Shown: piece by piece, positions 1 through 27,176 of the stretch
How the letters are laid out: every line of letters starts with the position of its first letter
How positions within the stretch are numbered: position 1 is the stretch's first letter
Assembly (NCBI GenBank): GCA_963797625.1
Contig: CAWCQI010000013.1
Coordinates: 28,964 to 92,963 of the forward strand
Length of the DNA stretch: 64,000 bases
Direction of reading: 5' to 3'
From: an uncultured Acidobacteriota bacterium
GTDB taxonomy: Bacteria > Acidobacteriota > Vicinamibacteria > Vicinamibacterales > 2-12-FULL-66-21
Program-made: the position numbers and the translations under genes
Notes under the pieces: generated by a model
What the model was told of the DNA's origin: nothing
Database searches by the model: none
What the model saw: the letters and a program-made list of their open reading frames with translations, nothing else

Positions 1-866
1 GTCGCGAGCGCGTTGGCGCCGAAGAGTCCCGCGACAACGATGCTGCAGCTCACGATCATCAGCGCCAACCGGCGCCATTCGCGCGCGAACAGCGCCGCCG
101 CGCCAATCGGCAGCGTCAGCAGGATATGCGTCGGCTTTGAAAAGGTCGCGATGCCGAGCAGGGCGAGCGCCGACATAGTCCGAGCTCGGAGAACGAAGAA
201 ACCGTTCGAGGCGGCCGAGGCTTCTCCTGGCGGAGCAACCCCTTTGTAGCTCCAGAGAAAAAACGCGCAGAGAACGAGCGTGAAGTTGAAGAGTTCCGGC
301 GCCAGCCACACGAAGTACACCGGCGTCACCGAGGCGAATAGAAACACCGCGGCAAATCCGGCGGCGAGGCCTGGGCTCGATCCCCTGGCCGCGAGGTATC
401 GATACGCCAGCGCGACGTTGAGTGTCAGGAGCAACGCGTGGAAAACGAGGAAACCCGTCGTGCCCATCAGCCACACGAACGGCGAGACGAACAGCGGATA
501 GATGTACGACTTGCCGTAGTAGAGCCGGCCGCGGGCGGCGTCGGGCGTCCGCTCCATCGTAAAGAAGGGAAAAGACGACGACCGTTTGAAGTCGACGCTG
601 GCGCCGCGTTTGAGGAAGATGCCGTCGGGCCCCGAGAACTCCTCCCAGACTCTGATCAGATCCTGACGCTGGAACGTGATGTCGCGATCGCGCGCGAGGC
701 TGTAGGTCAGGCTGTAGTAGGTCGCTTCATCGCCCTTGAAGCCCTTGGCGGTGCGCGGAAAATCGACTGACAGAGCGAATCCGAGCGAGACGAGCGCGAC
801 GGCCGTCGTCACGAGAACCCCCGGGTGACGCACACCCGCCCGCGCGGCGGCGACGATTCCCGTCAT
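1..866 (-). CDS. GT-C-like polytopic membrane glycosyltransferase (PMT_2/ArnT-like), 5' part only (runs off window)
   Basis: Absent from the ORF track because there is no stop in the window. My minus-strand translation from ATG 866 is open to base 1 (MTGIVAAARAGV..FKGDEATYYSLTYSLARDRDITF..APELFNFTLVLCAFFLWSYK..FSKPTHILL). Clear paralogue of 8879..10769. Multi-TM, with an acidic loop-1 motif DExxY. ATGA overlap with the upstream stop at 863. Confidence 0.6.
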   Translation of the reverse strand, partial: MTGIVAAARAGVRHPGVLVTTAVALVSLGFALSVDFPRTAKGFKGDEATYYSLTYSLARDRDITFQRQDLIRVWEEFSGPDGIFLKRGASVDFKRSSSFPFFTMERTPDAARGRLYYGKSYIYPLFVSPFVWLMGTTGFLVFHALLLTLNVALAYRYLAARGSSPGLAAGFAAVFLFASVTPVYFVWLAPELFNFTLVLCAFFLWSYKGVAPPGEASAASNGFFVLRARTMSALALLGIATFSKPTHILLTLPIGAAALFAREWRRLALMIVSCSIVVAGLFGANALA

Positions 867-2065
867 GAGCGGGAGGCCCCGCTCGTCAGAAAGCTGAGAT
901 CGGCGCTGAGCACTCCCTTTCGCCGGGTCGCGCGTGAGGTTTCGTGAAGCAGCACATAGAGCCGTTCCATTTTCTTCACGAAGAGGTCGATGTCGTACTG
1001 CGCGCCGGTTCGTCTCGCGTTGGCGCCAAGCCGCGCGCGCTCGCCAGGATCGTTTGCCAGCTGCACGATCGCGTCGGCGAGCGCCGCCGCATCGCGTCGC
1101 GGCACCATGCGCGCGTCGTGGCCGTCGGTCAGCACGTCCTTGAGGCCGTCGGCATCGGTCGAGACGATCGCCTTCCCCATCGCCAGCGCCTCCAGCACGG
1201 TGAGCGGCGTGCCTTCCCAGAGCGACGGAAAGACCAGCAGGTCGAGCGCCGACAGGGCCTGCGCGACGTCGCGCCGAAACCCCGAGAATACCAGCCGGTC
1301 GCCAAGCCCGAGGGCCGCGGCCTGCGCTTCCAGCGCCGGCTGGAGTTCGCCCTCGCCGATGATGTAGATCCGCGCCGCCGGGAGTGCGTCGAGGACCCGC
1401 CGGCTCGCCTCGACCAGGTATTCGTTGCCCTTTGAGGGCATCAGGCGGGTGATCGTGCCAATCGCGAATGTGCCGGCTGGAACACCGAGCGCGAGGCGAG
1501 CCTCGGCCACTTCTTCAGCGGTCCGCACGCGGCTGAATTCTTCGAGCGGCACGCCCAGATAGACCACCTTGGTGCGCTCGGCCGGAATCAGCCGCGCCCG
1601 TGTCGTGAAGTCCGCTGTCGATTGCGAGACGGCAATCGCGATGTCGGTCGCCGGCGCGAGCGCGCGGTCGGCGACCTTCTGGAACCAGGGCGTATCGGTG
1701 AGGTTGGCGTGCTCGTGAACGACAACCGGGATGTGACGAATCGCTGCCGCGAGCCGCCCGAAAGTGCTCGCGCCATAGCCGTGCAGGTGGACGACGTCGG
1801 CCTGTCGCCGATCGAGCTCCTTCAAGAGAGCCGGCAACGTCGCAGGGTCGAACTTCGACCGGTGCATATAGGTGACGTCGATCCCCAATTCGTCGAGCGT
1901 ATCGTTCGAGAGGTCGCGCTTGCGCAGGCTGATGAGCGACACGTTGAACCGGGTGCGATCGAAGCGAGGAATCATCCACGCGAAGAGGCGCTTGACGCCG
2001 TGCATGCGCGACCCGGTCCAGCCGAGGTGATCGCAGATATGAACGACGTTGAGGGGACGGCTCAC
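863..2065 (-). CDS. GT4-family glycosyltransferase
   Basis: C-terminal 400 aa of track ORF 863..3106. GTG start at 2065 overlaps the epimerase stop (GTGA). Typical GT4 C-terminal pattern (LVFPSLWEGTPLTVLEALAMGKAIVSTD). Confidence 0.8.
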   Translation of the reverse strand: MSRPLNVVHICDHLGWTGSRMHGVKRLFAWMIPRFDRTRFNVSLISLRKRDLSNDTLDELGIDVTYMHRSKFDPATLPALLKELDRRQADVVHLHGYGASTFGRLAAAIRHIPVVVHEHANLTDTPWFQKVADRALAPATDIAIAVSQSTADFTTRARLIPAERTKVVYLGVPLEEFSRVRTAEEVAEARLALGVPAGTFAIGTITRLMPSKGNEYLVEASRRVLDALPAARIYIIGEGELQPALEAQAAALGLGDRLVFSGFRRDVAQALSALDLLVFPSLWEGTPLTVLEALAMGKAIVSTDADGLKDVLTDGHDARMVPRRDAAALADAIVQLANDPGERARLGANARRTGAQYDIDLFVKKMERLYVLLHETSRATRRKGVLSADLSFLTSGASRS

Positions 2066-3049
2066 AACAACCCTTGGGCGCGGTACCAGGCCGCGGTGCG
2101 GTGAATGCCGGTCCGAAGATCGACGGTCGGATTGTAGCCCAGCTCTTCGCGGGCGCGCCGAGTATCGAACGCGCGGCTCTTGCGATAGAAGTCGACACGG
2201 CGGCGGAAGAGGGGCGGGTCGATGCCAAATGGCACGCAGACCAGCTCGCACAACGCTCCCGCGATCCAGACTGGCCACACGGGCAGATGGAGCCGCGGCG
2301 GCTGCACGCCGAGTTCCGTGGCAATCAACCCGACCAGTTCGTTGAGCGTCGTGTATTCGGGCCCGGCGAGAATATAGGTGCGGCCAGCGGCTGCCGGCAC
2401 CTGCCCGCACAGCGCAAAGCCGCGCACCAGATCGTCGATGTAGGTCAGGTGGTAGAAGACCTCTCCCGATCCCAGCATGGGAAAGCGGCCGCGAGCGATG
2501 CCGCGGAACATCTTCAGGAAGCGCAGATCGCCTGGCCCATAGATACCAATTGGCCTGGCGATCACGATCGTCGAGCGGGTGTCGCGACCCGAACGACCTC
2601 GCGAGCTCTTCGGCCTCGAGCTTGGTCCGCTGATACACGTCGCCCGGCGCGTACGGCGCGGTCTCGTCAGCCGGCGGATGCTCGATGTGACCGTGCACGC
2701 CACCCGTGCTGCAGTGCACCACGCGCCGCACGCCCGCCGAGAGCGCGCCTTCGAGAACATGTCTGGTGCCGTCCACGTTGACGCGCGTATACGCCGCGTC
2801 GCCCTGCCCCGCCTCGCGATACGTCGCCGCGATGTGGTAGACGACGTCGCAGCCTTGCGCTGCCGCGGCTACTGCCGCGGCATCCGTAAGATCTGCGACG
2901 CGCACGTCCGCTCCGGCCTCTTTCAGCCCGGCGGCGCGCGCCTCGCTCGAAGGCCGAACGAGCACGGCCACACGCTCACCCGCCTGCAGGAGGTGACGCG
3001 CAAGGTGACCGCCAGTGAATCCCGTGGCGCCCGTGACGAGAACGTTCAT
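2062..3049 (-). CDS. NAD-dependent epimerase/dehydratase (SDR), frame-disrupted near 2590
   Basis: N-terminus MNVLVTGATGFTGGHL (Rossmann GxxGxxG) and YQRTK (YxxxK) lie in the frame of ORF 863..3106. The C-terminus (IARPIGIYGPGDLRF..AWYRAQGLL) lies in the frame of ORF 2062..2760. The span is 988 nt (3n+1). ATGA overlap with the upstream stop at 3046. Confidence 0.75.
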
Positions 3050-4293
3050 GCGGGCGGTACGGCCGGGATGCGCGCCCGGAGGCCGGCAGCTGTCAGGCGA
3101 TCGCACACCAGTCGCGTTCGCGAGACGTACATCTCTCGGCTGTAGCGCGTCCGCGCGCGCTCGGCGGCTGCGCGTGCGAGCGAAGCCCCACGAGCCGGAT
3201 CATTCAACAGGCCTTCGAGCGCGGCCGCGAAAGCCGCGGCGTCGGGTCTGACCAGCAGCGCCGTGCTCCGATCGAGCACCTGCGTGTGCGTGAGCAGATC
3301 GGTCGCGACAATCGGCTTGCCGGCCCGGAGGTAGGAATAGATCTTCAGCGGCGTATTCGTCCCGGCGATGCGGGGAGACGTCAGGATGTCGGCCGCCTCG
3401 ACGAACGCGGGAATGTCCCGCGCCGGCTGGTGTCCGGTGAAGACTGCCGCCGCACCGGACTTTGCGGCGTGAGCACGGGCCGCCTCCACCTGCTCGGGGC
3501 GGCCGCCGACCACGAGGAGACGCGCGTCCGGCCGCGTCTTCGCGAGGATCGCCATCGCGTCGAGCAGCATGTCGAGCCCCTGGTATGGCTCGAACGTTCC
3601 CGTATACAGCATGAGCGGCGCCGCCGGATCGATGGCCCAATGACGGCGCACAAAAGCCGCCGATACCGACGGCGGATCTTCGACGTCGCCTCCCATGACG
3701 TTCTCGATGAGCACCGACCGCTCCCCCGCGCCCATCGCCTCGACGTGATCCTGGAGGTCCTGGCAGATCGTGACGACGACGTCTGAGCCGTGGACGGAGG
3801 CGTCCTCGACTTTTTGGAACAACCAGCGGAGGACACGGCTCTTGGCGAACCGGAAGTTCGTGAGCTGCTGGGGCAGGCTCGAATGCATGTCGTACAAGTG
3901 CGGCACACCAAGCGAGCGCGCCAGGAGCACGCCCAGAACGCCGGCCTCTTCGTGAGAATGCACGAAGTCGTAGGTCTCGCGCCGCGATTGCCGCCACGCC
4001 GTGACGGCAAGAAAGGCGTCGAGCACGAGCTTCGTGACCGAAGGGCCGATCCGGACCCGGGTCGCAAATGGCGGCCGGACGGTTCGCACGATGCGCAGGT
4101 TCGGCAGCGGCACGTCGGTCCCGAAAGGATAGGTCACGAGGTCGACCGAATGGCCGAGCTCGGTCAACGCCTTGATGCGGTGGTATTCGCTGAATGGCGT
4201 GCCGCGCGGCTCGAAGAACGGCTCCGGGGCCAACATCAGGATGCGCAGCGGGCGCACCGGCGCCAGCGGTCCGCTGGTGGGATCTACCTGCAA
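3046..4293 (-). CDS. GT4-family glycosyltransferase
   Basis: 415-aa ORF; LRILMLAPEPFFEPRGTPF N-terminus and a GT4-type C-terminal half (TSPRIAGTNTPLKIYSYLRAGKPIVATD). Confidence 0.8.
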   Translation of the reverse strand: MQVDPTSGPLAPVRPLRILMLAPEPFFEPRGTPFSEYHRIKALTELGHSVDLVTYPFGTDVPLPNLRIVRTVRPPFATRVRIGPSVTKLVLDAFLAVTAWRQSRRETYDFVHSHEEAGVLGVLLARSLGVPHLYDMHSSLPQQLTNFRFAKSRVLRWLFQKVEDASVHGSDVVVTICQDLQDHVEAMGAGERSVLIENVMGGDVEDPPSVSAAFVRRHWAIDPAAPLMLYTGTFEPYQGLDMLLDAMAILAKTRPDARLLVVGGRPEQVEAARAHAAKSGAAAVFTGHQPARDIPAFVEAADILTSPRIAGTNTPLKIYSYLRAGKPIVATDLLTHTQVLDRSTALLVRPDAAAFAAALEGLLNDPARGASLARAAAERARTRYSREMYVSRTRLVCDRLTAAGLRARIPAVPPA

Positions 4294-4350: not shown

Positions 4351-5358
4351 ATGACCCGACCAAAACTGAAGGACGTGCTGATCGTCCTCAAGCTGGCGGT
4401 GAGCACTGTCCTGCTCGTGATTCTGTTCCGTCGAGCGGACGTTGCCACGATGGCGGCGCGCTTCCGGCAGATGGATCCGGCGTGGACCATCGCCGCGCTT
4501 GGCGTCTACGGCCTCATGCTCGCGGTCAGTGCCTGGCGCTGGCGGCTGCTGCTCCGGTTGCAGACGATCGACGTCAGCCTGGGCACGCTGACCAAGTCGT
4601 TTCTCGTCGCCACGTTTTTCAACAACTTCCTGCCGAGCAACATCGGGGGGGACGTCGTGCGGGTCGCCGACACCGCACCGTTCGCTGGCTCCAAGACGCT
4701 CGCGACGACGGTCGTCCTCATCGACCGGGTCATCGGCCTCATCGCCCTGCTCGTCCTGGCCGCAGCGGCCTCGGCGATGGCCTGGAACCTCGGCCTTCGG
4801 CTGAAGGGGATGGAATACGTCTGGATCGCCCTCGTGCTCTTCACCGGAGGCCTGCTCCTCTGCCTCCGCAACCCGGAACGGCTCGCCAGCACGGCTCGCT
4901 CGGTCCTGGCCGATCGGCTGCTGGCAGTTCAGACGCGGCTGCAGAACCTCGTGAACGCGATGGGCCGCTTCGCCCAGCAGCCACGGGGACTCTGGTCCGC
5001 GTTCGGCGGCGCGCTCATCGTTCAGGCGCTGTTGATCCTCTTCTACGTCTGCGCCGCGCACAGCCTCGCGGTGCCCTTCCCCCTCCTCGCCGCCTCCGTC
5101 ATCGTCCCTATCAGCCTGGCCGTCCAGATGGTGCCGGTGTCGATCAACGGGTTCGGGGTTCGCGAGGCGGTGTTTGCGTTCTTCTTCACGGGTCTCGGGC
5201 TCAATGTCAGCTCAGCATTAACACTGTCGCTCGGCAGCGCCGCGCTCATCATGCTCTTCTCGCTGAGCGGCGGGGCGGTGTTCATGTTGCAGGCCGAAGA
5301 CAGCTTCCGGCCCCCAGCTTCCAGCTTCCAGCTAAGCCTCGAGCTCAGCTGCCGATAA
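4351..5358 (+). CDS. UPF0104 / lysylphosphatidylglycerol-synthase-TM-region (flippase-like) membrane protein
   Basis: 335-aa polytopic ORF with the family-typical WRWRLLL..FFNNFLPSNIGGDVVR segment. The last ~15 codons are encoded by the left arm of a repeat hairpin. Confidence 0.7.
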   Translation: MTRPKLKDVLIVLKLAVSTVLLVILFRRADVATMAARFRQMDPAWTIAALGVYGLMLAVSAWRWRLLLRLQTIDVSLGTLTKSFLVATFFNNFLPSNIGGDVVRVADTAPFAGSKTLATTVVLIDRVIGLIALLVLAAAASAMAWNLGLRLKGMEYVWIALVLFTGGLLLCLRNPERLASTARSVLADRLLAVQTRLQNLVNAMGRFAQQPRGLWSAFGGALIVQALLILFYVCAAHSLAVPFPLLAASVIVPISLAVQMVPVSINGFGVREAVFAFFFTGLGLNVSSALTLSLGSAALIMLFSLSGGAVFMLQAEDSFRPPASSFQLSLELSCR

Positions 5359-6812: not shown

Positions 6813-6928
6813 CCGTGACTACGAGCGCGAACCTCGTCCGACCGATCCGGTGAGATCACATTTTGGAGCGATTACGACTCAGGTGCGCTAAAATAGCCGG
6901 CTAACCAAACTCGATCTTGGAGAAGTTA

Positions 6929-7723
6929 ATGCTCAGGGTGTCCACGCTACTGCTTGCTTTCGCATGTGCCGCTTTCACGACCATTGCCTGCTCTGACGAA
7001 ACGCCAGTGAGTCCGACACCGTCGACGACGGCACAAGGACAGGCTGTTGGCGCGGATGGTTCGACCCTCAAAGTCAGTGCGCCGAATCCCGTGTCACCCG
7101 CCGATGGCGCAACCCTCAACACGCTGAAGCCTACGCTCGAGGTCTCGAGCGCTGCGGCACGGTATACGGGTCAGGCGGTTTCCTATTCGTACAACTTCGA
7201 GCTCCAGACCGCCTCAGGGACCGTGCGTCCGCGCGGAAAAGCTTCCGGGCACGACCTGGGCGTTCCCCGACAATCTCGCGAACGACACGTCGTACCGATG
7301 GCGCGCTCGCGCTGTCAGGAATAACGCGTTCGGACCGTGGTCCGCTCTGCGGCAGTTCCGAACACAGAACTTGGTTGGCTGCGAAAACGGCCTGATGATC
7401 GATATGCGAGCGTACTTCTTTAACCTCATCGGTCGGACCAAGGGTCAGGGCGCGCGTGACTGGGTGGCCGTGATGCGGGCCAGCGGCATTCCCGCCGGGC
7501 CAACGGCAGGCGTCAGGCTCCCGTCCAATGCTCCCTTCTACGGGCTCACGCAACAGATCGACAGCGGGGGGGCCTGCGCGGACGCGTCTTCCTGCCGACC
7601 AGTCACGCCAAACCCTCACGGCTATTTCATCCAGGAGTCGACTTTCTCAGCGACGCAGGGGGTTCGAGTTGGGCGTGGCGGCCGCATGGCACGCCAGCCT
7701 ATGCTCCACGAGCGTGTCCCTGA
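6929..7723 (+). CDS. Paralogous lipoprotein (one Ig-like module plus the same C-terminal domain), at least 3 frame disruptions as assembled
   Basis: Lipobox TTIAC. By re-framing I recover TWAFPDNLANDTSYRWRARAVRNNAFGPWSALRQFRT, then GCENGLMIDMRAYFFNLIGRTKG..PSNAPFYGLTQQ, LRGRVFLPT, HGYF and SWAWRPHGTPAYAPRACP-stop, colinear with 5625..6812. Shifts near 7222, 7570 (G-run), 7610 and 7665. Confidence 0.6.
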
Positions 7724-8084
7724 GTTGTTCGTGAGCTAAGAGCGACGCACGCTCGACAATCAATCTCGACCCGCCGTCTCACGGGGACGGAAGTCAGTGC
7801 TTTTCCTCAGTCGTGCTGGCCCTTCGGGGCCGGCACGTACAATCCACCCGCACCTTTGCGCAGGCGCTACACTCGATTCTCCGCGAGGTTCAACGACCTG
7901 GCGACGCTTCGCCGGCGCGGGTAGGATTCGTGCCCCGCAACGACGCAGAATGTCCAAGGCATCCTGAAGGGACGCTGCCATCGGTGACTCAGATCGATTT
8001 CAGAACATCTCTCGACTATAGTGTCTCCGTTATAAGGACACGCCCGCTGCCTTGCTGCAGCCGGGCCAATCAGGGCAACTTCTG

Positions 8085-17075: not shown

Positions 17076-17183
17076 GTGACGCCTGACCTCCACGCCGTCG
17101 GGAGAAATGACTCCGATAAGGGGCGATACAGGTCGCAAGCCATTCTTTACAAAAGGCGCAAAGTAACGTAGTATCAAGTGTTT

Positions 17184-19957: not shown

Positions 19958-20916
19958 CGCCGGAACCTGCCGACTGCCGGCTTCGATTCGTAGATCCGTT
20001 GGATTGCGTCGAAGTAGATCGTCGCCATGGCATCGTATCCGCGCACGGTCGGATGAAGGTCGTCGACACCGATGTAGCTCAGATCGTCTTTCATGCCGTC
20101 GAAGACTTCGACCAGGTCGGTCCCTTCCGCGGCTGCCAGCGCTCGCACCCGGTCGTTGAAGGCCGGAATGCTCTTCGCCACGGCGTCGCGTCGCCCACCC
20201 GGCCGTTGCGGTGGGATGGTTGCGAGCGCGACGCGGACGCCCTGGCTCCGCGCCTCGCCAATCATCGCCCGCAAGGAGTTGATCGCGGCGTTGGCGCCGT
20301 TCTGCCCGTTGAGCAGGTCGTTGGTGCCCTCCATGAGCAGGACGACCTCTGGCCGATGCTGCAGGAGCTCGCCTCTGAATCGTTGCACGCCCGTGCCAGA
20401 CGCCAGCTCGCCGGGGTTGCCGTCGTTCAGCACGACCGGCGTCTGCTGGCGGTAGCGCGACACGAGGCGACTCTGCAGCCCGGTCGGATACGAGTCGGGC
20501 ACTGAGGCGATGAGCAGCGACACGGCGGGCGAGATTACGCCGTAGGTCAGGCTGTCGCCAAACGCCAGGAACTTGTTAGCGGTCAGCTGCGGGGGCCCCT
20601 GCACCATCACCGAAAAGCCACAGGTCGCGGCTTGACTGCGCGAATCCCGGGCTTCGCACGCGACCGCCGCCGTTCCGACCGGGAACTGGCTGCCGTTCTG
20701 CGGTGTGCAGGTGGAGGTGATCGGCGCGGTGCCCCCGGACGTTCGCGGCGCCTCGAACGTCGCCGTCACAGCGTTCCCGTCAGGCGACTGCACGGCCACG
20801 TTGGCCGGGCACGTGATCGTCAGCGGTATGGGCGTCGGCGCATTCGGCGTGCTGCCGCACGCGCCCAGCCATCCGGCCACTGCGACCACAATGAGGTGCC
20901 GCCATGCGGCTCGCAT
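19954..20916 (-). CDS. Lipoprotein with N-terminal HYR-like Ig domain fused to an SGNH/GDSL hydrolase
   Basis: Lipobox WLGAC. HYR-like ITCPANVAV..FPVGTAAVACEARD..CGFSVMV. SGNH blocks FGDSLTYG, EGTNDL, DDLHPT. Only the C-terminal 320 aa of track ORF 19954..21660 are real. Confidence 0.75.
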   Translation of the reverse strand: MRAAWRHLIVVAVAGWLGACGSTPNAPTPIPLTITCPANVAVQSPDGNAVTATFEAPRTSGGTAPITSTCTPQNGSQFPVGTAAVACEARDSRSQAATCGFSVMVQGPPQLTANKFLAFGDSLTYGVISPAVSLLIASVPDSYPTGLQSRLVSRYRQQTPVVLNDGNPGELASGTGVQRFRGELLQHRPEVVLLMEGTNDLLNGQNGANAAINSLRAMIGEARSQGVRVALATIPPQRPGGRRDAVAKSIPAFNDRVRALAAAEGTDLVEVFDGMKDDLSYIGVDDLHPTVRGYDAMATIYFDAIQRIYESKPAVGRFRR

Positions 20917-20918
20917 CG

Positions 20919-22809
20919 TCACAGCGCGAACTCCTCGGCCCACCGCTCGAACACCATCAGACTGAACAGCACATGCGCGTGGTTGGCACGTCCGGCGCAA
21001 TGCTCGTCGATGAGCCGGCGCGTCTCGGCCGGCTCGATTAATCCGCGCGCCGCGAGCCGCTCCGGCGCGAGCAGGCGCTCCATCAGCGGCTTGAGCTCCC
21101 GCTTCAACCACTGCTTCATCGGAATGCTGAAGCCTTCCTTCTTGCGGTCGAGAATGCGATCGGGCACCAAGCCGCGCAGCGCCTGCTTGAGGATGAACTT
21201 GCGCGTGCCGCCACGAATCTTCAGATCGCCAGGCATCGAGAACGCCAGCTCCATCACCTTCGCGTCCAGAAACGGCGCGCGCGTCTCGAGCGAGGTGGCC
21301 ATACTCATCCGATCGACCTTCACCAGGATGTCGTCGGCGAGATAGATCGACAGATCGGCGTACAGCTGCCGGTTCAACAGGTCGTCGTGGCCCATTCGGG
21401 CCAGCGCTTCCCTGACCGGGCGATAGACATCGGCGGACGCGAGCGCGCCTCGGAACGCGGGCGTATACAAGCGCGCCTTGGCGTCCGCGCCAAGAAACGT
21501 CATCCAGCGATACTGCGCGATCGACGCGGGCGCATGCGCGAGGCCATCGACGAACCGACGCGCCTTGTTGACGAGGCCCTTTTTCTTGTCGGTCGGCGGA
21601 ACGAGCGCCAGCACCGCGTCTGCCGCGCGGGTGGCCGCCTCCGGCATCAGGCCGGCCCACTTCCCCGCCAACGCCTCCGCTTGATAGGCGTCATATCCGC
21701 CGAACAGCTCATCGCCGCCGTCCCCCGTCAGCACAACCTTCACGTGTTCCCGCGCCATCTGGGACACCAGAAACGTCGGGAAGAGCGACACATCGGCAAA
21801 CGGTTCGTCGAGATGGACCACCAGGCGGTCGAAGAGTGATGCGACGTCTGGCGTCACAGTCCCTTCGTGATGCGCGGTCCCGCACAACCGAGCGACTTCC
21901 CGCGCGTACGGCAATTCGTTGTAACTGCCGTCGTCAAAGCCCATGCTGAAGCTCGATACCGCGGAGCTGCCCTGCGCGTCGCGCAGCATGATGCCGACCG
22001 CGCTCGAATCGATGCCGCCGGAGAGAAAGAGACCAATCGGCACGTCGGACATCATCTGGCTGCGCACCGCTTCGCCCAGCGTTTCTCTAAGCGCGTCGGC
22101 GGCCTCATCAACCGACCAGGCCCGCACCTCGACGTCAGCGGCATCCCAGTAGCGCTTGACGGTGACCTGCCCGTCCTTGTAGACGAGATAGTGTGCCGGC
22201 GGCAGTTTGTGAATGGCCTTGAAGATCGTTCGCGGCGCGATGATGTACTCGTAGGTCAGGAACTCATCGAGCGCCTCGTGATCGATGCGTCCGATCGACC
22301 TCGGGCCGCGAGAGCAGCGCCTTGATTTCCGACGCGAGCCGCAATCCTTCGGACGTCACCGTGTAGTACAGCGGCTTTTCACCAGCCCGATCTCGAGCGG
22401 CGATGAGCGCGCGGCGGCGGCCGTCCCACAGCGCGAGCGCGAACATCCCGTGAATTTTCTGGAGAAACGCTTCGCCGTATTCCTCGTAGGCATGGACGAG
22501 GACCTCGACGTCCGAACGGGAGCGGAACCGGTGACCGCGCGCGGCGAGCGCATCCTTGACTTGATTGAAGTTGTAGATCTCGCCATTGGCGACGACCTGC
22601 ATCGAGCCGTCCTCGTTGGCGAACGGCTGCTGGCCGCCGGCAATGTCGACGATGGCGAGCCGGCGCATGGCGAGGCCGACGCCCGGCAGCAGAACGCTGC
22701 CTTCGTCGTCGGGACCCCGATGGTTCAGGGTCCGGACCATCCGCTGCACGTCAATCTCGGCCACAGGCCGAGTCAGATCCCGCTCGACAATCCCGACAAT
22801 CCCGCACAT
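20919..22809 (-). CDS. asnB: Asparagine synthase (glutamine-hydrolysing), frame shift near 22290
   Basis: MCGIVG Ntn nucleophile and GATase-II half in ORF 22264..22809. SGGIDSS PP-loop half in ORF 20919..22127, whose frame stays open upstream to the junction. The span is 3n+1. Confidence 0.8.
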
Positions 22810-22972: not shown

Positions 22973-23027
22973 GTAGTGTCCGGCTTCAGCCGGACGTCAT
23001 GTTCGTCCGGCGGAAGCCGGACGCTAC
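22973..23027. repeat. REP-like pair (GTAGTGTCCGGCTTCAGCCGGAC and an inverted copy)
   Basis: gtagtgtccggcttcagccggac .. gtccggcggaagccggacgctac. The second copy supplies the TAG stop of 23024..23893. Confidence 0.75.
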
Positions 23028-23893
23028 GTGTTTGTCCCCGAGTCCGACGCCCGCCGATCGCGAATGACGCGCGCGGGCACGCCAGCGGCGACATGAAACT
23101 CCGGCACGTCGGACGTCACCACAGCGCCCGCACCGACGACGGCGTCCCGCCCGATGCGAACGCCGTCGGCCACGACGACGTGGGCTCCCAGCCAGACGTT
23201 GTCGCCAACGTCGATGCCGCGCGCCGTCCGTCCCTGGTCGAGGACCGGCACGTCCACCCGGTCGTACAGATGATCGCCGCCGACGAGATACGTATAGGCG
23301 GCGATGAGCACCTTCTTGCCAACCCTGACCGTCGCAGCCGAGAACACTTCGACATTGAAGCCGACGTTGGCGTCTTCGTCGAGCACGATGTCGCCGTTCT
23401 TGCAACTCAGGATCGTGTTGCGGCCAATGAACACGCCGCGCTTGATCGAAATGCCTTGGTTGGTCGTCCCCTTCGCGTCCAGACAGCACTGGTCGTCGAT
23501 GACGACGTTGTCGTCGATGTCGATCTTGTGGGGGTGCCGCAGCACGACATTGCAGCCGAAGGCGACGTTCCTGCCCACGCGACCCAGAATCAACGGATAG
23601 AGCTTTGAACGCAGAAAGAGGCCGAGCGCTCCCGGCACCCAGGCCGACAGCAGCAGCACGACTTCGTATTTCACGAGTGCCCAGAGACCGGGCTGGCCGA
23701 CGACAAGATCGGCATAGCGCTCGCGCCGCGAACGGCCGGCACCGAACTCGCGCTGGATGTCGGTGATCCGGACGTCTGCCGCGCCAGGAATTTTGCCCAA
23801 TCCGCCCGTGGCTTCGCCCCGCGGCTCAGTTGAACCGCTTGATATTGACACGGGCTTCGTCGTCTCCCGCCAGGCCTGCCGCGCTCGAGACAC
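23024..23893 (-). CDS. Left-handed beta-helix (hexapeptide-repeat) acyl/acetyltransferase with an N-terminal TM segment
   Basis: Hexapeptide periodicity (IDIDDNVVIDD.., VGDNVWLGAHVVVADGVRIGRDAVVGAGAVV). The start is uncertain: ATG 23893 overlaps the upstream gene by 68 nt, and GTG 23773 is an alternative. Confidence 0.7.
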   Translation of the reverse strand: MSRARQAWRETTKPVSISSGSTEPRGEATGGLGKIPGAADVRITDIQREFGAGRSRRERYADLVVGQPGLWALVKYEVVLLLSAWVPGALGLFLRSKLYPLILGRVGRNVAFGCNVVLRHPHKIDIDDNVVIDDQCCLDAKGTTNQGISIKRGVFIGRNTILSCKNGDIVLDEDANVGFNVEVFSAATVRVGKKVLIAAYTYLVGGDHLYDRVDVPVLDQGRTARGIDVGDNVWLGAHVVVADGVRIGRDAVVGAGAVVTSDVPEFHVAAGVPARVIRDRRASDSGTNT

Positions 23894-24878
23894 CGGTCGT
23901 GGCAGATATTCCGGCGATCTGGCGGGGCTCGCTCTGGCGGATTTCCCGGATGACGTAGGTCGGCTTGTCCTGCGACTCGTGATAGGTCCGCGCCTGCATC
24001 TCGGCCAGCAGACCGAGCGTCACTAACTGAACGCCCGTAAAGATCAACAGGATGCCGAGGAGCAGAATCGGCCGATCGGCAATGCCCTGCGTCGTCGTCA
24101 ACCGGACATAGACGAGCCACGCGAGGATCAAGCCACCGACGAGCCCCATGAGCAGGCCCCAAAGCCCGAAGATCTGAACAGGGCGAGTGCGGTAGCTGAT
24201 CAGGAACTTGACCGTCAGCAGGTCGAGGATGACTCGTATCGTGCGCGAGATGCCGTACTTCGACGTGCCGTGCTGTCTCGGCCGATGATTGACGACCGTC
24301 TCCACTGTGGTCACGCCAAACTCGCTGGCGATCGCCGGCAGGAACCGGTGCATTTCGCCGTAGAGCTTCATCGGCTTGACGACCTCTGCACGGAAGACCT
24401 TGAGCGAGCACCCGTAGTCGTGCAGCTTCACGCCGGTGGCCTTCGAGATGATGCGATTGGCGACCATCGATGGCAGGCGGCGGCTGAAGAACTTGTCTTT
24501 TCGATCCTTGCGCCATCCCGCGATGATGTCCGCCGGGTGCTGCTCGAGCTTGGCCACCATCGCGATAATGTCGCGCGGGTCGTTTTGCAGATCGCCGTCC
24601 ATGGTGACGATGTAGCGCCCGCGGGCGTGAGCAAAACCCGCGGCAAAGGCAGCGGTCTGACCAAAATTTCGGCGGAAGCGGATCACGCGGAGCCTGGCAT
24701 CCGAGGTCTGCCGCTCGGCGAGCCGAGCGAAAGTGTCGTCGGTGCTCCCGTCGTCGATGATCAGGATCTCGTACGGGCGGCCGCCGGCCTCGAGCGCCGC
24801 GGTCAGCTCGGCGTAGAGCTGCTCCACATTGGGCGCCTCGTTCTTCATCGGAACGACGACCGAGATGTCCGGCTGCAT
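23826..24878 (-). CDS. GT2 polyprenyl-phosphate glycosyltransferase (ArnC/GtrB/DPM1-like)
   Basis: ISVVVPMKNE, IIDDGSTDDT, MDGDLQNDP (DxD), plus two C-terminal TM helices as in the ArnC/GtrB type. Confidence 0.8.
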   Translation of the reverse strand: MQPDISVVVPMKNEAPNVEQLYAELTAALEAGGRPYEILIIDDGSTDDTFARLAERQTSDARLRVIRFRRNFGQTAAFAAGFAHARGRYIVTMDGDLQNDPRDIIAMVAKLEQHPADIIAGWRKDRKDKFFSRRLPSMVANRIISKATGVKLHDYGCSLKVFRAEVVKPMKLYGEMHRFLPAIASEFGVTTVETVVNHRPRQHGTSKYGISRTIRVILDLLTVKFLISYRTRPVQIFGLWGLLMGLVGGLILAWLVYVRLTTTQGIADRPILLLGILLIFTGVQLVTLGLLAEMQARTYHESQDKPTYVIREIRQSEPRQIAGISATTGVSSAAGLAGDDEARVNIKRFN

Positions 24879-24923: not shown

Positions 24924-25523
24924 TCAAACCGCCGGGCGCTCGCTCCGGCGCTGCCAGAGGATCCAGCCGGCGCCGCCGACGATGACCACCAGGGCGACGA
25001 CCAGCGCGACCGTTCTGGCGTTCTGTCGCAGGAAGTCCGCCGCCTGGTCGCCGTAATAGACCGCGAGCAGGCCCTCACCGAAATACCGAAACCCTCGACC
25101 GATGGCGATCGCCAGGATGAAATCGACGGGCCGGACCTTGGCGACCCCAGCCGCGAGTACGAAAATCTTGAAGGGCGTTGGCGGTGGAAGAATCGAGGGG
25201 ACGAGGATCGCGAGCAGGCCGTAGCGGCGAAACGTCGTCATGGCGCGCTCGACGTACTGCGGGTTGAAGCGCTTGAGGAGGAACGCTTCACCACCCTTGC
25301 GCGCGAGCGCGTACAGCGCCAGGCAGCCGCTGACGGACCCGAGGGTGGTCATCAGCGCGTAGTAGATCATCCGTTCTTCATGCTGCGTCGTCAGCCAGAT
25401 GATCAGGAGATCGTTGACTTCGGGAAACGAGAGAAAAGACGAATCCAGAAACGCGATGATGAACAACCCGGGGCCGCCGAGGGAAACCGCAAAGGCCTTG
25501 ATCCACGCTACGAAACCCGCCAT
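24924..25523 (-). CDS. DedA/YqaA-family (SNARE-associated) membrane protein
   Basis: MAGFVAWIKAF..FLDSSFLSFPEVNDLL..RRYGLLAILVPSILPPPTPFKIFVLAAG. Start taken at the internal ATG 25523. Confidence 0.7.
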   Translation of the reverse strand: MAGFVAWIKAFAVSLGGPGLFIIAFLDSSFLSFPEVNDLLIIWLTTQHEERMIYYALMTTLGSVSGCLALYALARKGGEAFLLKRFNPQYVERAMTTFRRYGLLAILVPSILPPPTPFKIFVLAAGVAKVRPVDFILAIAIGRGFRYFGEGLLAVYYGDQAADFLRQNARTVALVVALVVIVGGAGWILWQRRSERPAV

Positions 25524-25593
25524 TGTCCCAAAGTGTAGACTAGAAGCGCTCTGGCCACCACGAAGCACGATTCAGCCACGACGGTCCGTCTTG

Positions 25594-25694
25594 GTCCGGC
25601 TGAAGCCGGACACCACTACAGCGGTCCGGCTAAAGCCGGACACTACGACGGCGGTCGCACTCTCTGGTTTCGTAGTGTCCGGCTTCAGCCGGAC
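25594..25694. repeat. REP-like cluster (three copies: two direct, one inverted)
   Basis: gtccggctgaagccggacaccactac, gtccggctaaagccggacactac, gtagtgtccggcttcagccggac. Confidence 0.8.
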
Positions 25695-25706
25695 GTCAGC
25701 AAAGAC

Positions 25707-27176
25707 ATGGTGCGCTGGGCGCCCCTGGTGATCGCGGCGGCCACGCTTCTTGCTGGCAGCGCCGCTGCCGTGTACTACGCTCGCGCCGGCCTGGCGCTGA
25801 GCCACTACGACGCGCGCGCGCATCTCGTCGTGGCGCGCCGTATCCTCGACAGCCTGATGCCTGGATGGCAGCAGATTGGCGCCGTCTGGCTTCCCTTCCC
25901 GCATCTCCTGAACATGATCCCTGTGCAGGTGGACGCGTGGTACCGATCCGGCGCGTCGGCGATCGCGATATCGGTGGTATCGATGGCGGCCGGCGCGTGG
26001 GCGCTGGCCTCGTTCATCATCCAGCGGACCGGCTCGATCGCGGCCGGCGCGGCAGCCGCGACACTGCTCCTGGTGAACCCAAACGTCCTTTACCTGCAGA
26101 GCACGCCGATGACCGAGCCATTGCTCTTCGGCACGACACTCGTCGCCGTGGCGCTGGTCGCAGACTGGGTCGATCGTGGCGCGCCGGATTGGCCGCTGGC
26201 GGCGGGGCTGGCTGTCGCGGCGGCATGCATGACGCGGTACGAGGCGTGGCCGGTGTGTGCCGCGCTGCTCGCTCTCGCGTTCGCGGTTCTTCTAAGACGC
26301 GGCACGCCTCCCCGCGCGGCGACGATGGCGATCGCCCGGCTGGCGGCATACCCAACGGTCGCGATTGCGCTCTTCCTGCTCAACAGCCGATGGACGGTCG
26401 GCGCCTGGTTTGTCAGCGCAGGGTTCTTTGTTGCGGAGAACGATGCGATCGGCCAGCCACTGCTGGCCTGGGATCAGGTACGAGAAGGTGTCTATCGACT
26501 CTCGGGTCCGGCTCTGGTGTGGCCGGCGTACGGCGGCGCAGCTTTGATCGCGTGGACCTTTGCGCGATCGCGCTCGCTCGCGTCGATGGTGCTCGTTCTG
26601 GCGCCGATGGGCGCAGCGGCCCTGCCCTGGTACGCATACTTCGAGGGCCACCCGTTCCGCATCCGCTATGGGGTGCCGCTCGTCGTCGCGTGCGCGGCAC
26701 TCGTCGGCGCCGGCATCAGCTTGCTTCCGCGCGTTCTGCGAGCCGGTGCCGCAATCGTCGCCGTGGCAGCGTCTGTCTGGCAGGTCTCACCGCTCGATCG
26801 GACGGCGCCGGTCATCGTCGAGTCACAGCGCGATGCGCAGAACATGGTGGGCCGCCGCGCGGTCACCGCCTATTTGCGCACGCACTACGATGGGCGCCCG
26901 ATCATGATGAGCATGGGATCGCTCGCGCATTACATGCACGACCTGTCACTCGAAGGATTCGACATCCACGATTTTCTGCAGGAAGGCAATGGCGAGGTCT
27001 GGGTATCCGCCATGCAGTACGGACCAGCCGCGTACGTGAGATGGGTGGCGGTCGAGGAACGTGCTGAAGGCGGAGACGCCGTCTACCAGCGGTCGAAGCA
27101 GTTCGCCGGCTTTTTGAAGGGCTTCGAACGGGTCGCGGAGGGAGGCGGCGTAGCCCTCTATCGGGCTACGCCGTGA
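25707..27176 (+). CDS. Polytopic GT-C-like membrane protein with a C-terminal soluble domain
   Basis: 489-aa intact ORF with ~10 TM segments. LSHYDARAHLVVARRILDS loop-1 segment. The family assignment is tentative. Confidence 0.5.
   Translation: MVRWAPLVIAAATLLAGSAAAVYYARAGLALSHYDARAHLVVARRILDSLMPGWQQIGAVWLPFPHLLNMIPVQVDAWYRSGASAIAISVVSMAAGAWALASFIIQRTGSIAAGAAAATLLLVNPNVLYLQSTPMTEPLLFGTTLVAVALVADWVDRGAPDWPLAAGLAVAAACMTRYEAWPVCAALLALAFAVLLRRGTPPRAATMAIARLAAYPTVAIALFLLNSRWTVGAWFVSAGFFVAENDAIGQPLLAWDQVREGVYRLSGPALVWPAYGGAALIAWTFARSRSLASMVLVLAPMGAAALPWYAYFEGHPFRIRYGVPLVVACAALVGAGISLLPRVLRAGAAIVAVAASVWQVSPLDRTAPVIVESQRDAQNMVGRRAVTAYLRTHYDGRPIMMSMGSLAHYMHDLSLEGFDIHDFLQEGNGEVWVSAMQYGPAAYVRWVAVEERAEGGDAVYQRSKQFAGFLKGFERVAEGGGVALYRATP

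Follow-up and report, generated by a model that had tools for sequence, protein, structure and literature searches.

In the PIM/LM system, a glycolipid is primed, flipped and then extended by GT-C enzymes in the periplasm. The catalytic pair of one such enzyme, PimE, is D58/Y62 (PMC12041525). GT4 and UPF0104 functions are combined for glycolipid synthesis and flipping in gpgSDF (PMC12713373), and an archaeal GT2/UPF0104/GT-C gene context also exists (PMC5898192). MT-PplT fusions are on record (10.1101/2022.03.11.483950). GT-C enzymes carrying a C-terminal carbohydrate-binding module (CBM), such as GT136 (PMC11127046) and EmbC (PMC3044687), work on glycans. DedA proteins are presented as undecaprenyl-phosphate flippases in two reports (PMC9876793, PMC12893004).

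The logic of PIM/LM assembly is proposed here, from the genes, for a ~28-kb cluster of an uncultured soil acidobacterium (Vicinamibacterales). The window, i.e. the whole stretch of DNA analysed, spans 64 kb. The cluster encodes five GT-C-type membrane glycosyltransferases (P1-P5) and, according to domain identities, the making and flipping of lipid-linked sugars. Its left end is marked by an amine oxidase gene that follows the P1 homologue in the related locus L001, and its right-hand end is OMP2. The features are as follows.

3..866, minus strand: P1, GT-C-like polytopic protein, paralog of P2, KGDEATYY motif after TM1; N-terminal 288 aa only, as the gene passes the left window edge
863..2098, minus strand: GT4a, cytoplasmic GT4 (Pfam Glyco_trans_1_4, 1.9e-34, and Glyco_transf_4)
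2062..3049, minus strand: NAD-dependent sugar epimerase/dehydratase (Pfam Epimerase, 3.3e-30, N-terminal half)
3046..4293, minus strand: GT4b, cytoplasmic GT4 (Pfam), divergent from UPF0104-1
4351..5358, plus strand: UPF0104-1, MprF-type flippase-like domain (Pfam LPG_synthase_TM, 5.2e-40), 8 predicted TM helices
5625..6812, plus strand: lipoprotein with Ig/FN3-like repeats, lipobox VSAC
6917..7739, plus strand: second lipoprotein, lipobox TIAC, one frameshift
8081..8857, plus strand: MT1, class-I SAM methyltransferase (Pfam Methyltransf_11, 1.4e-26)
8879..10769, minus strand: P2, GT-C-like protein, ~630 aa, KGDEATYV motif after TM1; one frame break at ~10555-10578
10799..12609, minus strand: P3, GT-C of the PMT_2 family (GT39/GT83-like), HPDEKVQ motif after TM1; frameshift at ~11400 and in-frame stop at 11036-11038
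12831..13435, minus strand: OMP1, putative outer-membrane beta-barrel, frameshifted
13750..15426, plus strand: MT2-UPF0104-2 fusion, one gene, methyltransferase (Methyltransf_11, 9.6e-12) N-terminal to a flippase-like domain (LPG_synthase_TM, 7e-25); three frameshifts
15458..17075, plus strand: P4, GT-C-fold protein (AlphaFold/Foldseek), 539 aa, PDDAGYF...RLPYGDP loop; one frameshift at 16675/16677
17178..18334, plus strand: radical SAM/SPASM (twitch) protein (Pfam Radical_SAM, 3.4e-6, and SPASM; NCBIfam twitch rSAM, 2.8e-10), N-terminal Cys-cluster region in another frame
18475..19176, minus strand: MT3, class-I SAM methyltransferase (Pfam Methyltransf_11, 4.9e-21)
19262..19957, minus strand: MT4, class-I SAM methyltransferase (Pfam Methyltransf_23, 1.7e-22)
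19954..20886, minus strand: HYR + SGNH/GDSL esterase periplasmic lipoprotein (Lipase_GDSL_2, 1.6e-25, and HYR), signal sequence with lipobox WLGAC
20919..22809, minus strand: AsnB-type glutamine amidotransferase (Asn_synthase, 7.9e-101; GATase_7, 1.4e-44), one frameshift at ~22264-22355
23024..23620, minus strand: LbH hexapeptide-repeat O-acetyltransferase, WcaF/WbbJ-like (Pfam Hexapep; NCBIfam WcaF family, 1.4e-24)
23826..24878, minus strand: GT2, polyprenyl-phosphate glycosyltransferase of the ArnC/GtrB/PgfS/AglJ type (Pfam Glycos_transf_2, 3e-34)
24924..25523, minus strand: DedA/VTT-domain membrane protein (Pfam VTT_dom, 9.3e-13)
25707..27176, plus strand: P5, intact 489-aa polytopic protein, remote PMT_2-clan GT-C, SHYDARAH motif after TM1, soluble C-terminal domain
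27186..27947, minus strand: OMP2, outer-membrane beta-barrel (Pfam OMP_b-brl, 1.1e-6), C-terminal end ...HFRF

The original prediction listed most of these parts. Its five polytopic proteins were recovered with their motifs and positions, and Pfam bears out the two GT4s, epimerase, four methyltransferases, LbH, AsnB, SGNH and radical SAM proteins, as well as the two UPF0104 proteins (LPG_synthase_TM twice) and the DedA protein (VTT_dom). The two announced outer-membrane barrels fared unequally: OMP2 has a Pfam match, whereas a Pfam search with the window copy of OMP1 returned none, the equivalent syntenic genes of L085 and L086 matching OMP_b-brl (faintly in L086). At least 11 frame disruptions, about a dozen, are spread across the window genes, namely the epimerase, P2, P3, OMP1, MT2-UPF0104-2 (three), P4, AsnB, one lipoprotein and, outside the cluster, EPSP synthase. 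In the epimerase a single frameshift (~2560-2870) places the C-terminal half in a different frame, and the N-terminal half is closest to HpnA-like proteins in NCBIfam. Since these genes are intact in relatives 97-98% identical, the disruptions are assembly errors, not gene decay. P0001, for instance, is 97% identical to P2 with an intact gene, and in L001 the P3 homologue is intact (593 aa) and MT2-UPF0104-2 is one protein of 559 aa.

P1 to P5 are all supported as GT-C-like, to an unequal extent, and none resembles a transporter. An acidic motif in loop 1 had been claimed for all five, and it does follow TM1 in P1, P2, P3 and P5, whereas in P4 the invariant PDDAGYF...RLPYGDP loop follows the fifth predicted TM helix. 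Among the window copies searched against Pfam families, only P3 matches, to PMT_2 (1.7e-14; 54.8 bits for a cut-off of 26.1) and PMT (3.7e-6), whereas P1 (partial), P2, P4 and P5 have no family match. P5 is nevertheless tied to the PMT_2 clan by its relatives (at least 4587 homologues): 6 of 23 diverse family members match PMT_2 (best 1.4e-9), the hhalign comparison of the P5 family with P3 gave a probability of 93.8% (E 1.8e-7), and H33 and D35 are fully conserved across the family alignment. K48, D50 and Y54 show no variation in the alignment of the P2 family (at least 1883 homologues), and D50/Y54 are spaced i, i+4, like the catalytic pair of PimE. P1 is 40-43% identical to P2-family proteins and weakly matches the NCBIfam LA_3751/LA_3752 putative GT; its homologue in L001 has 531 aa, the gene call being N-terminally short. 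All 305 homologues of P4 are annotated 'hypothetical', and D192 and D193 are invariant among them.

The two modelled proteins, P2 and P4, have GT-C folds as their closest membrane-protein matches. The P4 model is confident (pLDDT 83.6, pTM 0.87) and the P2 model (pLDDT 69, pTM 0.64) is only moderate, and poorly resolved around the motif. In Foldseek searches of the PDB, whose E-values never reach 1e-3 or below and whose TM-scores are modest (0.31-0.55), all of the best 10 matches of P4 are GT-C folds (AglB, PIGU, GPI-MT-I, PimE, ALG9, ALG3, EmbB), and PimE (9dm5) is the top membrane-protein match of P2 (probability 1.0, target-normalised TM 0.45). The predicted C-terminal beta-sandwich of P2 resembles a carbohydrate-binding module, with Foldseek matches to CBM61/16/29; by analogy with GT136 and EmbC, this speaks for a glycan as acceptor.

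P2 relatives occur in 320 or more species genomes, almost exclusively of Vicinamibacterales, and the neighbourhood is conserved in relatives. Because the polytopic proteins are GT-C-like and this neighbourhood is kept, neither of the two contrary outcomes foreseen in the original prediction was encountered. The genes of its 'super-cluster' are present, whereas the locus is a composite of separate modules whose widely kept core contains a single GT-C. This core consists of P2, the two GT4s (GT4a next to P2 in 37 of 52 loci, GT4b near it in 44), UPF0104 (UPF0104-1 in 41/52) and LbH (38/52). The first lipoprotein is found in 39 of the 52; its conserved C-terminal domain and that of the second lipoprotein are paralogs. 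P3 lies near P2 in 2/52 loci and P4 in 4/52; P1, P3 and P4 are add-ons limited to some lineages. Versions with multiple GT-Cs nonetheless recur (L001, L002, L066, L085, L086).

GT2, DedA, P5 and OMP2 form a self-contained unit within the composite locus. The first three are always neighbours, with 60-76% identity across relatives, and OMP2 is kept beside P5. In L083 and L084, where the remainder differs, the unit still adjoins the housekeeping IMPase/aro/ccm genes (76% identity for GT2, 55% for OMP2). The ArnC/GtrB type claimed for GT2 is upheld by TMDGDLQNDP (DxD motif), two C-terminal TM helices, full-length alignment to ArnC, PgfS and AglJ, and NCBIfam matches to ArnC (best, full length, 2.8e-60) and PgfS (7e-43), both below equivalog cut-offs. 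As GT2-DedA-P5 lies within 10 kb of the P2 core in 6 of 52 loci and the core is mostly without it, the proposed functional tie between the two is tentative.

The UPF0104 proteins had been taken for polyprenyl-phosphate-sugar flippases. The archaeal gene context offers a precedent, whereas here UPF0104 genes accompany GT4 genes, not GT2: GT4b and UPF0104-1 (NCBIfam TIGR00374 flippase-like, above cut-off) form a divergent pair in 41-44 of 52 loci. Since this pairing has the gpgSDF precedent, analogy makes glycolipid flippases the more likely assignment, and it favours glycolipid priming and flipping followed by periplasmic GT-C extension. The closest PDB entries are Alr3699, PglA, PimA and PimB' for GT4a and PimA (full length, 2.4e-13), then MshA and PimB' for GT4b, the PimA/MshA/PimB' matches being usual for any GT4 query. 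The window contains neither a phosphatidylinositol synthase nor an inositol-phosphate synthase gene.

Ordinary exopolysaccharide synthesis, with initiation and export genes located elsewhere in the genome, could also account for the cluster. It is hinted at by both GT4s and AsnB, whose nearest NCBIfam families are those of PEP-CTERM/XrtA exopolysaccharide systems (TIGR03088 XrtA-system GT, 4e-40, for GT4a; XrtA/PEP-CTERM amidotransferase, 2.9e-110, for AsnB), all three below cut-offs. Within the scanned ORFs of the whole 64 kb, nothing matches the Wzx, Wzy, Wza or Wzc families or an initiating phosphoglycosyltransferase (Bac_transf, Glycos_transf_4), as had been announced for Wzx, Wzy, Wza and the initiating transferase. 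We give an even chance to the reading as a whole: a composite Vicinamibacterales envelope-glycoconjugate cluster for polyprenyl-phosphate-sugar-dependent glycosylation at the periplasmic face, not Wzx/Wzy or ABC-transporter assembly.

For this periplasmic glycosylation we infer substrates, a lipid acceptor, flippase assignments and an order of steps that can be summarized as follows. On the cytoplasmic face, the two GT4s would glycosylate a membrane-lipid acceptor using nucleotide sugars, one of them adjusted by the epimerase, and the LbH acetyltransferase, AsnB-type amidotransferase and methyltransferases may tailor the sugars or the lipid. The glycolipid primer would reach the outer leaflet via the two UPF0104 (MprF-flippase-like) proteins. 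The ArnC-like GT2 would charge polyprenyl phosphate with a sugar; this carrier would be flipped and, once spent, recycled, DedA being a candidate for either step. In the periplasm the GT-C enzymes would move sugars from the polyprenyl-phosphate donor to the acceptor, P2 and P1 (PimE-like and ending in a CBM-like domain) and P4 extending or branching the glycan chain and the PMT_2-type P3 and P5 adding further residues; P5 may alternatively target the LPS core or lipid A. Once in the periplasm and outer membrane, the product would be processed or retained by the SGNH lipoprotein, both Ig-like lipoproteins and both barrels.

The claim that this is not a described pathway holds for the product and the lineage, on whose locus the literature search returned nothing published, whereas each module has a described analogue. 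The product is probably an uncharacterised, periplasm-built, lipid-anchored surface glycan: the parts of the cluster resemble known systems, and the product and the lineage are new to the literature searched.

The gene content of the cluster was established by Pfam and NCBIfam scans of re-framed ORFs, which bore out the gene list of the original prediction. The genes are arranged in the following order, P1 being the last cluster gene on the left as judged from its homolog in the 87%-identical contig L001 of a relative.

Gene order of the cluster and neighbouring features
866 to 3 (-): P1, polytopic GT-C-like protein
then: GT4a (cytoplasmic glycosyltransferase), epimerase, GT4b (cytoplasmic glycosyltransferase)
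4351-5358 (+): UPF0104-1, flippase-like protein
5625-6812 (+): lipoprotein
6917-7739 (+): lipoprotein
then: MT1, methyltransferase
10769 to 8879 (-): P2, polytopic GT-C-like protein
12609 to 10799 (-): P3, polytopic GT-C-like protein
then: OMP1
13750-15426 (+): MT2-UPF0104-2, methyltransferase fused to a flippase-like domain
15458-17075: P4, polytopic GT-C-like protein
17178-18334 (+): radical SAM/SPASM protein
then: MT3 and MT4 (methyltransferases), HYR-SGNH lipoprotein, AsnB, LbH acetyltransferase
23826-24878 (-): GT2, ArnC-like glycosyltransferase
then: DedA
25707-27176: P5, polytopic GT-C-like protein
then: OMP2, OM barrel
28246-29313 (-): IMPase-family gene
57593-61483 (+): 1296-aa open frame, MacB-type permease joined to NtrC-type regulator

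Housekeeping genes are found right of position 28154 (IMPase, anti-sigma kinase, aroA, aroK, Ccm, thiolase, RecA and MacB/NtrC). Among the ORFs scanned across the 64 kb, no family match was obtained for Wzx, Wzy, Wza, Wzc, a phosphoglycosyltransferase or an exosortase, nor was an ABC-2 exporter found, in line with the lack of Wzx/Wzy/Wzz/Wza, initiating transferase and ABC exporter originally noted for the cluster. The same export and initiation genes are also missing from the gene lists of the homologous loci L001, L002 and L083-L086. No member of the GtrA or MATE families was matched in the scanned ORFs, a DedA/VTT protein being located between GT2 and P5 instead, and no PI synthase, inositol-phosphate synthase or PatA-type acyltransferase was found in the window. 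The IMPase-family gene is a constant right-hand neighbour of OMP2/P5 in L012, L071, L079, L083 and L084; the arrangement may reflect nothing more than conserved gene order, or it may point to inositol-containing lipids.

The two adjacent lipoproteins are paralogous, with Ig-like repeats and the lipoboxes VSAC and TIAC, and have in common a C-terminal domain (...RAYFF.LIGRT.G...GLPAGPTAGVR.PSNAPFYGLTQQI...) that corresponds to no Pfam family. One of the two, a candidate for a periplasmic partner of the system, is kept beside P2 in 39 of 52 loci. For the radical SAM/SPASM gene, which is kept in many loci, no part in building a glycan is obvious. The NCBIfam models closest to it describe twitch-domain rSAM proteins and maturases of heme or peptides, every one scoring far under its cut-off, and the region of its N-terminal Cys cluster is out of frame in the window. 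In the 1296-aa frame, a MacB-type permease (MacB_PCD and FtsX) is joined to a complete NtrC-type regulator comprising receiver, sigma-54 AAA+ and HTH_8 domains, which reflects either an assembly error that removed a stop codon or an unusual fusion. A link to hopanoids, raised by the HpnA-like epimerase half and weak HpnB and HpnH matches, was rejected as these are generic cross-hits far under the cut-offs.

The window has a G+C content of about 65% and the close relatives found are all Vicinamibacterales/Vicinamibacteria MAGs of Acidobacteriota. Frame breaks were located by six-frame translation and by comparison with L001. The epimerase, P2, P3, OMP, P4, AsnB and lipoprotein genes each display one frameshift, the MT2-UPF0104-2 gene displays three, and P3 contains an additional in-frame stop (11036-11038). 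Altogether, positions 1-31000 contain no fewer than 11 frameshifts and a single in-frame stop in otherwise conserved genes, the housekeeping EPSP synthase among them. The breaks map to 2560-2870, 10555-10578, 11036-11038, ~11400, 13771-14704, 16675-16677, 22264-22355 and ~30640-30820. Proteins 97-98% identical to P2 (P0001), P4 (P0241) and P5 (P0121) are unbroken at the same sites in other assemblies, the EPSP synthase, a housekeeping gene outside the cluster, likewise appears split, and split genes are also present in the related long-read ENA contigs L001 and L002. The breaks are therefore attributed to assembly errors and not to decay, a pattern typical of error-prone long-read metagenome assemblies; true pseudogenisation was rejected in view of the intact near-identical relatives and the frameshifted housekeeping gene.

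Five GT-C-like enzymes had been predicted in the cluster. That count stands for P3 on Pfam evidence and for P4 on predicted fold, probably for P1 and P2, and for P5 as a remote relative of the PMT_2 family. The acidic loop-1 motif attributed to all five is present in P1, P2, P3 and P5; in P4, whose loop 1 shows little conservation, the invariant acids (D192/D193) follow the fifth helix. By hydropathy, each protein has from 5 to 9 or more strong TM segments; AlphaFold predicts helical bundles for P2 and P4, and none of the five resembles a transporter. Pfam produced no matches with the window copies of P1, P2, P4 and P5, NCBIfam produced weak matches at most (LA_3751/LA_3752 putative GT; Agl23), and searches of PDB sequences and profiles with P2, P5 and the family alignments A1-A4 returned chance matches only. 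P3 is a GT-C enzyme according to its sequence, matching Pfam PMT_2 (PF13231; 1.7e-14, 54.8 bits for a cut-off of 26.1) as well as PMT, and the acidic motif HPDEKV is present in the loop after TM1.

P4 has 305 homologs, all labeled 'hypothetical', and belongs to no Pfam family; scanning 41 members against Pfam yielded nothing meaningful. Its AlphaFold model (pLDDT 83.6, pTM 0.87) was compared with the PDB using Foldseek, and the best ten matches are all GT-C structures (AglB, PIGU, GPI-MT-I, PimE, ALG9, ALG3 and EmbB among them), with probabilities of 0.95-1.0, target-normalised TM scores of up to 0.55 (GPI mannosyltransferase I) and a best E of 1.3e-3. Further GT-C structures (ALG6, PglB, ArnT) appear lower in the list. 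P4 is thus assigned to GT-C by its modelled fold. The possibilities that P4 is a transporter, or a polymerase or ligase of the Wzy/WaaL type, were considered and discarded: Foldseek gave no such match, transporters and complex I scoring below 0.15 in probability.

P2 has more than 1883 homologs, of which a few are named GT87 or DUF2029: the homolog P0095 carries PF09594 (DUF2029) and another is GT87 by NCBI naming. Its model is of moderate quality (pLDDT 69) and poor at residues 37-51. Foldseek retrieved PimE and the OST-complex chain 7oci_F (probability 0.99-1.0, target-normalised TM 0.45), PimE being the best membrane-protein match, and the last 140 residues resemble carbohydrate-binding modules (CBM). 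In the motif K-x-D-E-A-T-Y, K48, D50 and Y54 are invariant; the spacing between D50 and Y54 is the same as that between D58 and Y62, the catalytic pair of PimE, to which they may be equivalent. P2 is probably a GT-C enzyme, and so, by sequence, is P1, a paralog 40-43% identical to it. P5 taken alone has no PMT_2 match. A profile search of 1.8 billion representatives identified 2545 relatives, and 6 of the 23 members of a diverse alignment match PMT_2, the best at 1.4e-9. The profile of this alignment (A4) aligns with P3 over 239 columns at 93.8% probability in hhalign, a significance reached only with A4, as the narrow alignment A2 remains insignificant (11%). In the SHYDARAH motif of P5, H33 and D35 are invariant in close relatives, and conservation of D35 across the diverse set is 90% or higher. 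Since only the family, and not P5 itself, matches PMT_2, P5 is considered a remote relative rather than a demonstrated member. No relation between the P2 and P5 families was detected by hhalign, and they are therefore treated as separate GT-C lineages.

The original prediction had also named an ArnC/GtrB/DPM1-type GT2 and two UPF0104 flippase-like proteins, and both proposals held. The GT2 displays the catalytic domain (PF00535, 3e-34), the DxD within TMDGDLQNDP and two C-terminal TM helices (249-267 and 278-296). It aligns to positions 7-312 of the 316 of the ArnC model (2.8e-60), scoring 204 bits for an equivalog cut-off of 529, and also full-length to PgfS (7e-43) and AglJ, in all cases under the equivalog cut-offs. 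As far as these models allow, GT2 is ArnC-like in kind and not ArnC. UPF0104-1 (4351-5358) scores 138 bits with Pfam PF03706 (cut-off 33.4) and 46.0 with TIGR00374 (cut-off 43.2); UPF0104-2 (14302-15423) scores 88.5 bits with Pfam and 39.3 with TIGR00374, just under the cut-off. UPF0104 is the lipid-flippase domain of MprF. The partners of the UPF0104 genes are GT4 genes and not the GT2; the best solved relatives of GT4b are PimA, MshA and PimB', matches that are generic for GT4. The MT2-UPF0104-2 gene combines a class-I methyltransferase with a flippase-like domain and is read as one 559-aa protein in L001 (5475-7154), a domain arrangement which suggests that one polypeptide may methylate and then translocate a lipid. 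Methyltransferase-UPF0104 fusions have been noted before (10.1101/2022.03.11.483950). DedA proteins flip undecaprenyl phosphate, and polymyxin resistance that depends on Ara4N requires them (PMC12893004).

A scan limited to one genome per species identified 320 genomes with a relative of P2, nearly all from Vicinamibacterales. The window proteins were then compared by tblastn to the 52 loci possessing full 10-kb flanks. Retained around P2 are GT4b (44 loci), UPF0104-1 (41), the Ig-like lipoprotein (39), LbH (38), GT4a (37) and UPF0104-2 (36); radical SAM, OMP, MT and SGNH genes are frequent, and P4 (4) and P3 (2) are rare in the vicinity of P2. Homologs of P4 (~50% identity), looked up directly, lie in the same multi-GT-C locus type in L085 and L086. 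GT2, DedA, P5 and OMP2 form a compact unit (identities of 76, 60, 66 and 55%, respectively, in L083 and L084) that holds its place by IMPase-aroA-aroK-Ccm in these two loci even when the upstream genes differ; in 6 of the 52 loci it is found no more than 10 kb from P2. Gene order is retained at 87%, 70% and ~50% protein identity. The conserved core and the self-contained GT2-DedA-P5-OMP2 unit lead to the conclusion that the predicted 'super-cluster' is real and recurrent, and also that it is modular. In L084, whose P5 is 65% identical, lpxR (7759-8322), encoding a lipid A deacylase, directly adjoins GT2-DedA-P5, and upstream (1-3880) lie genes for a Mannosyl_trans2 protein (PIG-V-like GT-C) and for an 860-aa PMT_2 protein. 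Around this site of the chromosome, Vicinamibacteria seem to carry an unusual wealth of GT-C enzymes.

The pathway that these genes may encode can be summarized as follows. A glycolipid would be primed in the cytoplasm and flipped, then extended in the periplasm by the GT-C enzymes and tailored by acetylation, amidation, methylation and the SGNH esterase. GT2, DedA and GT-C would follow a three-component logic in which DedA replaces GtrA/MATE (PMC11127046). The donor of the GT-C enzymes would presumably be a polyprenyl-phosphate-linked sugar made by the ArnC-type GT2 of the locus. Such a PIM/LM-like route would require neither Wzx/Wzy nor an ABC exporter; all its substrates are those we infer. 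Priming of a glycolipid is favoured on account of the GT4-UPF0104 pairing, the relatives of GT4b and the PimE-like GT-C with its CBM, and the association of GT4 with UPF0104 is the glycolipid logic of gpgSDF/hexSDF (PMC12713373). A more specific version is a tentative possibility, more doubtful than not: Vicinamibacteria would make a lipomannan-like lipoglycan, GT4-primed, UPF0104-flipped and both polymerised and branched in the periplasm by GT-C enzymes (a PimE-like one with CBM, a Pfam-less family and a PMT_2-like one) using polyprenyl-P-sugars as donors, with DedA as carrier flippase.

Several described systems resemble parts of this arrangement. GtrA/GtrB/GtrX and the Citrobacter GT136 system likewise combine a polyprenyl-P GT2-type synthase, a small membrane protein and a GT-C active outside the cytoplasm, with an auxiliary epimerase as a further common element, and the GT136 founder has a C-terminal CBM, as does P2 (PMC11127046); here, however, DedA replaces the GtrA/MATE flippase, five GT-C are present instead of one, GT4/UPF0104 pairs are added and no O-antigen or acceptor-polymer genes lie nearby. 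The mycobacterial PIM/LM/LAM pathway (PimA, PimB', Ppm1, PimE, MptA/B, EmbC) has in common with the proposed route a GT4-primed lipid, flipping, several periplasmic GT-C, a GT2-made polyprenyl-P-sugar and the lack of Wzx/Wzy or ABC exporter (PMC12041525, PMC3485146, PMC3044687). PimE, the best solved membrane-protein match of P2, shares its D-x-x-x-Y spacing (PMC12041525) and EmbC also has a C-terminal CBM (PMC3044687). In contrast, the present host is a diderm acidobacterium, the window contains no PI synthase, Ino1 or PatA homolog and an IMPase gene next door only, the similarity of GT4 to PimA is generic, and UPF0104 and DedA have no defined mycobacterial counterpart. The pairing of a GT4 with a predicted UPF0104 flippase is that of gpgSDF (P. 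aeruginosa GlcN-phosphatidylglycerol) and hexSDF (C. difficile), where it serves the synthesis and translocation of a glycosylated membrane lipid (PMC12713373), whereas here there is no deacetylase, both GT4s match the GlcN-PG synthase model at only ~1e-8 and the pair forms part of a much larger locus with GT-C genes.

ArnC-ArnT with DedA-dependent Und-P recycling (PMC12893004) is resembled in a GT2 nearest ArnC, the PMT_2-clan P5 and P3, the adjacent DedA and the lpxR gene of one relative; it differs in that GT2 is under the ArnC cut-off and that ArnA/B/D and deacetylase genes are lacking. The archaeal AglD-type neighbourhood, a predicted glycosylation system with UPF0104 as flippase, clusters the same three domain families (GT2, UPF0104, PMT-STT3-like GT-C), its UPF0104 being GT2-fused, unlike the MT-fused or GT4-paired proteins of this bacterial locus (PMC5898192). 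The archaeal Agl23 model gives weak matches with P3 and P5. The Pgf system of Streptococcus mutans acts on adhesins in a Gram-positive host and is not known to contain GT4/UPF0104 genes. Pgf, as this locus, groups a PgfS-like GT2 (7e-43 here, under the PgfS cut-off), an epimerase and several polytopic GT-C-like proteins.

Other explanations were weighed against a periplasmically extended glycolipid. An ordinary EPS or capsule locus related to XrtA/PEP-CTERM systems, where the GT4s build an Und-PP repeat unit, the initiation, flipping, polymerisation and export genes lie elsewhere and the GT-C enzymes merely decorate the finished polymer in a GtrABX- or GT136-like manner, is considered unlikely. 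It would account for the best NCBIfam models of GT4a (TIGR03088, stp2, 4e-40), GT4b (TIGR04063, stp3, 3e-27) and AsnB (TIGR03108, XrtA/PEP-CTERM amidotransferase, 3e-110), but the scores are far under the cut-offs (138 vs 409, 96 vs 442 and 370 vs 817 bits, respectively). P2's CBM-like domain would suit a polysaccharide acceptor (PMC11127046), the LbH protein is WcaF/WbbJ-like and GT4a also matches PglA, PglJ and PglH, which use Und-PP-linked acceptors; yet exosortase, Wza/Wzc, Wzx/Wzy and phosphoglycosyltransferase are missing from the scanned 64-kb ORFs and from the L001, L002 and L083-L086 gene lists, and steady GT4-UPF0104 pairing is foreign to Wzy-type loci. ArnC-ArnT has variants in Bordetella (LgmABC) and Francisella (FlmF2/FlmK), and the PMT_2 clan also includes ArnT-like enzymes. 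Decoration of lipid A or LPS core by GT2-DedA-P5 (possibly with P3), modelled on ArnC-ArnT, LgmA-LgmB and FlmF2-FlmK, would add an Und-P sugar and leave the rest as a separate adjacent system. Such a role is distinctly unlikely: the conserved P2/GT4/UPF0104 core and P4 would be left unexplained, no ArnA/B/D-type or deacetylase gene is present, P5 alone lacks a PMT_2 match, LpxR adjacency is seen in one locus only (L084, beside GT2), and the full-length ArnC match of GT2, its best, reaches 204 of the 529 bits of the equivalog cut-off. In its favour are the full length over which GT2 matches ArnC, the lpxR gene beside GT2 in L084, the PMT_2-clan affiliation of P3 and, remotely, P5, the self-contained unit that stays by IMPase/aro/ccm where the remaining locus differs, the OM barrel OMP2 that always adjoins P5 and the need for DedA in Ara4N-dependent polymyxin resistance (PMC12893004).

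Protein O-glycosylation, in which PMT_2-type enzymes would modify secreted proteins or lipoproteins from polyprenyl-P-sugar, the co-encoded lipoproteins being targets, is modelled on actinobacterial Ppm1-Pmt and streptococcal PgfS/PgfM1/PgfE/PgfM2 and is quite improbable. P3 matches PMT_2 and PMT but is rare (2 of 52 loci), and the widespread GT-C, P2, is PimE-like with a CBM-like domain that points to a glycan or glycolipid acceptor. The PgfS match of GT2 (7e-43), an epimerase as in the Pgf system and two core lipoproteins with Pro/Thr/Ser-rich linkers, one of them kept in 39 of 52 loci, would fit, but Pmt-type systems have no place for two GT4s and two UPF0104 proteins. Finally, that unrelated loci lie together by accident or are decaying, as a pseudogenised remnant without common function, is highly improbable: at least 11 frame disruptions in 28 kb and modules found apart in many relatives suggest it, yet P2, P4 and P5 are intact in 97-98% identical relatives, frameshifts or splits also affect the EPSP synthase outside the cluster and genes of L001/L002, and gene order is kept down to ~50% protein identity.

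Every module of the locus has a described analogue and the locus is therefore not a new category. In the literature searched, nothing relevant describing it in Vicinamibacteria or Acidobacteria was found. What the analysis yields is the assignment, from sequence comparisons and models, of the large 'hypothetical' families of P2 (probably), P4 and P5 (remotely) to GT-C, the recognition of a conserved GT4/UPF0104/GT-C-CBM core across a major soil lineage, and a testable lipoglycan hypothesis. Homologs of P2, P4 and P5 run into the thousands, almost all of them annotated 'hypothetical', and the GT-C assignment offers them a working annotation. In soil, Vicinamibacteria (Acidobacteria subdivision 6) rank with the most abundant bacteria; to our knowledge, almost nothing is known of their cell envelope, and no fewer than 320 species-level genomes contain the locus or its core. 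Were the locus to assemble a lipid-anchored glycan in a PIM/LM-like manner, this logic would reach beyond Actinobacteria, and the locus would be a natural test case for the cargo of stand-alone UPF0104 proteins and for DedA in dedicated polyprenyl-P-sugar pathways. Should the lipoglycan reading be true, a mycobacterial-style envelope pathway would exist outside Actinobacteria, conserved in more than 300 species.
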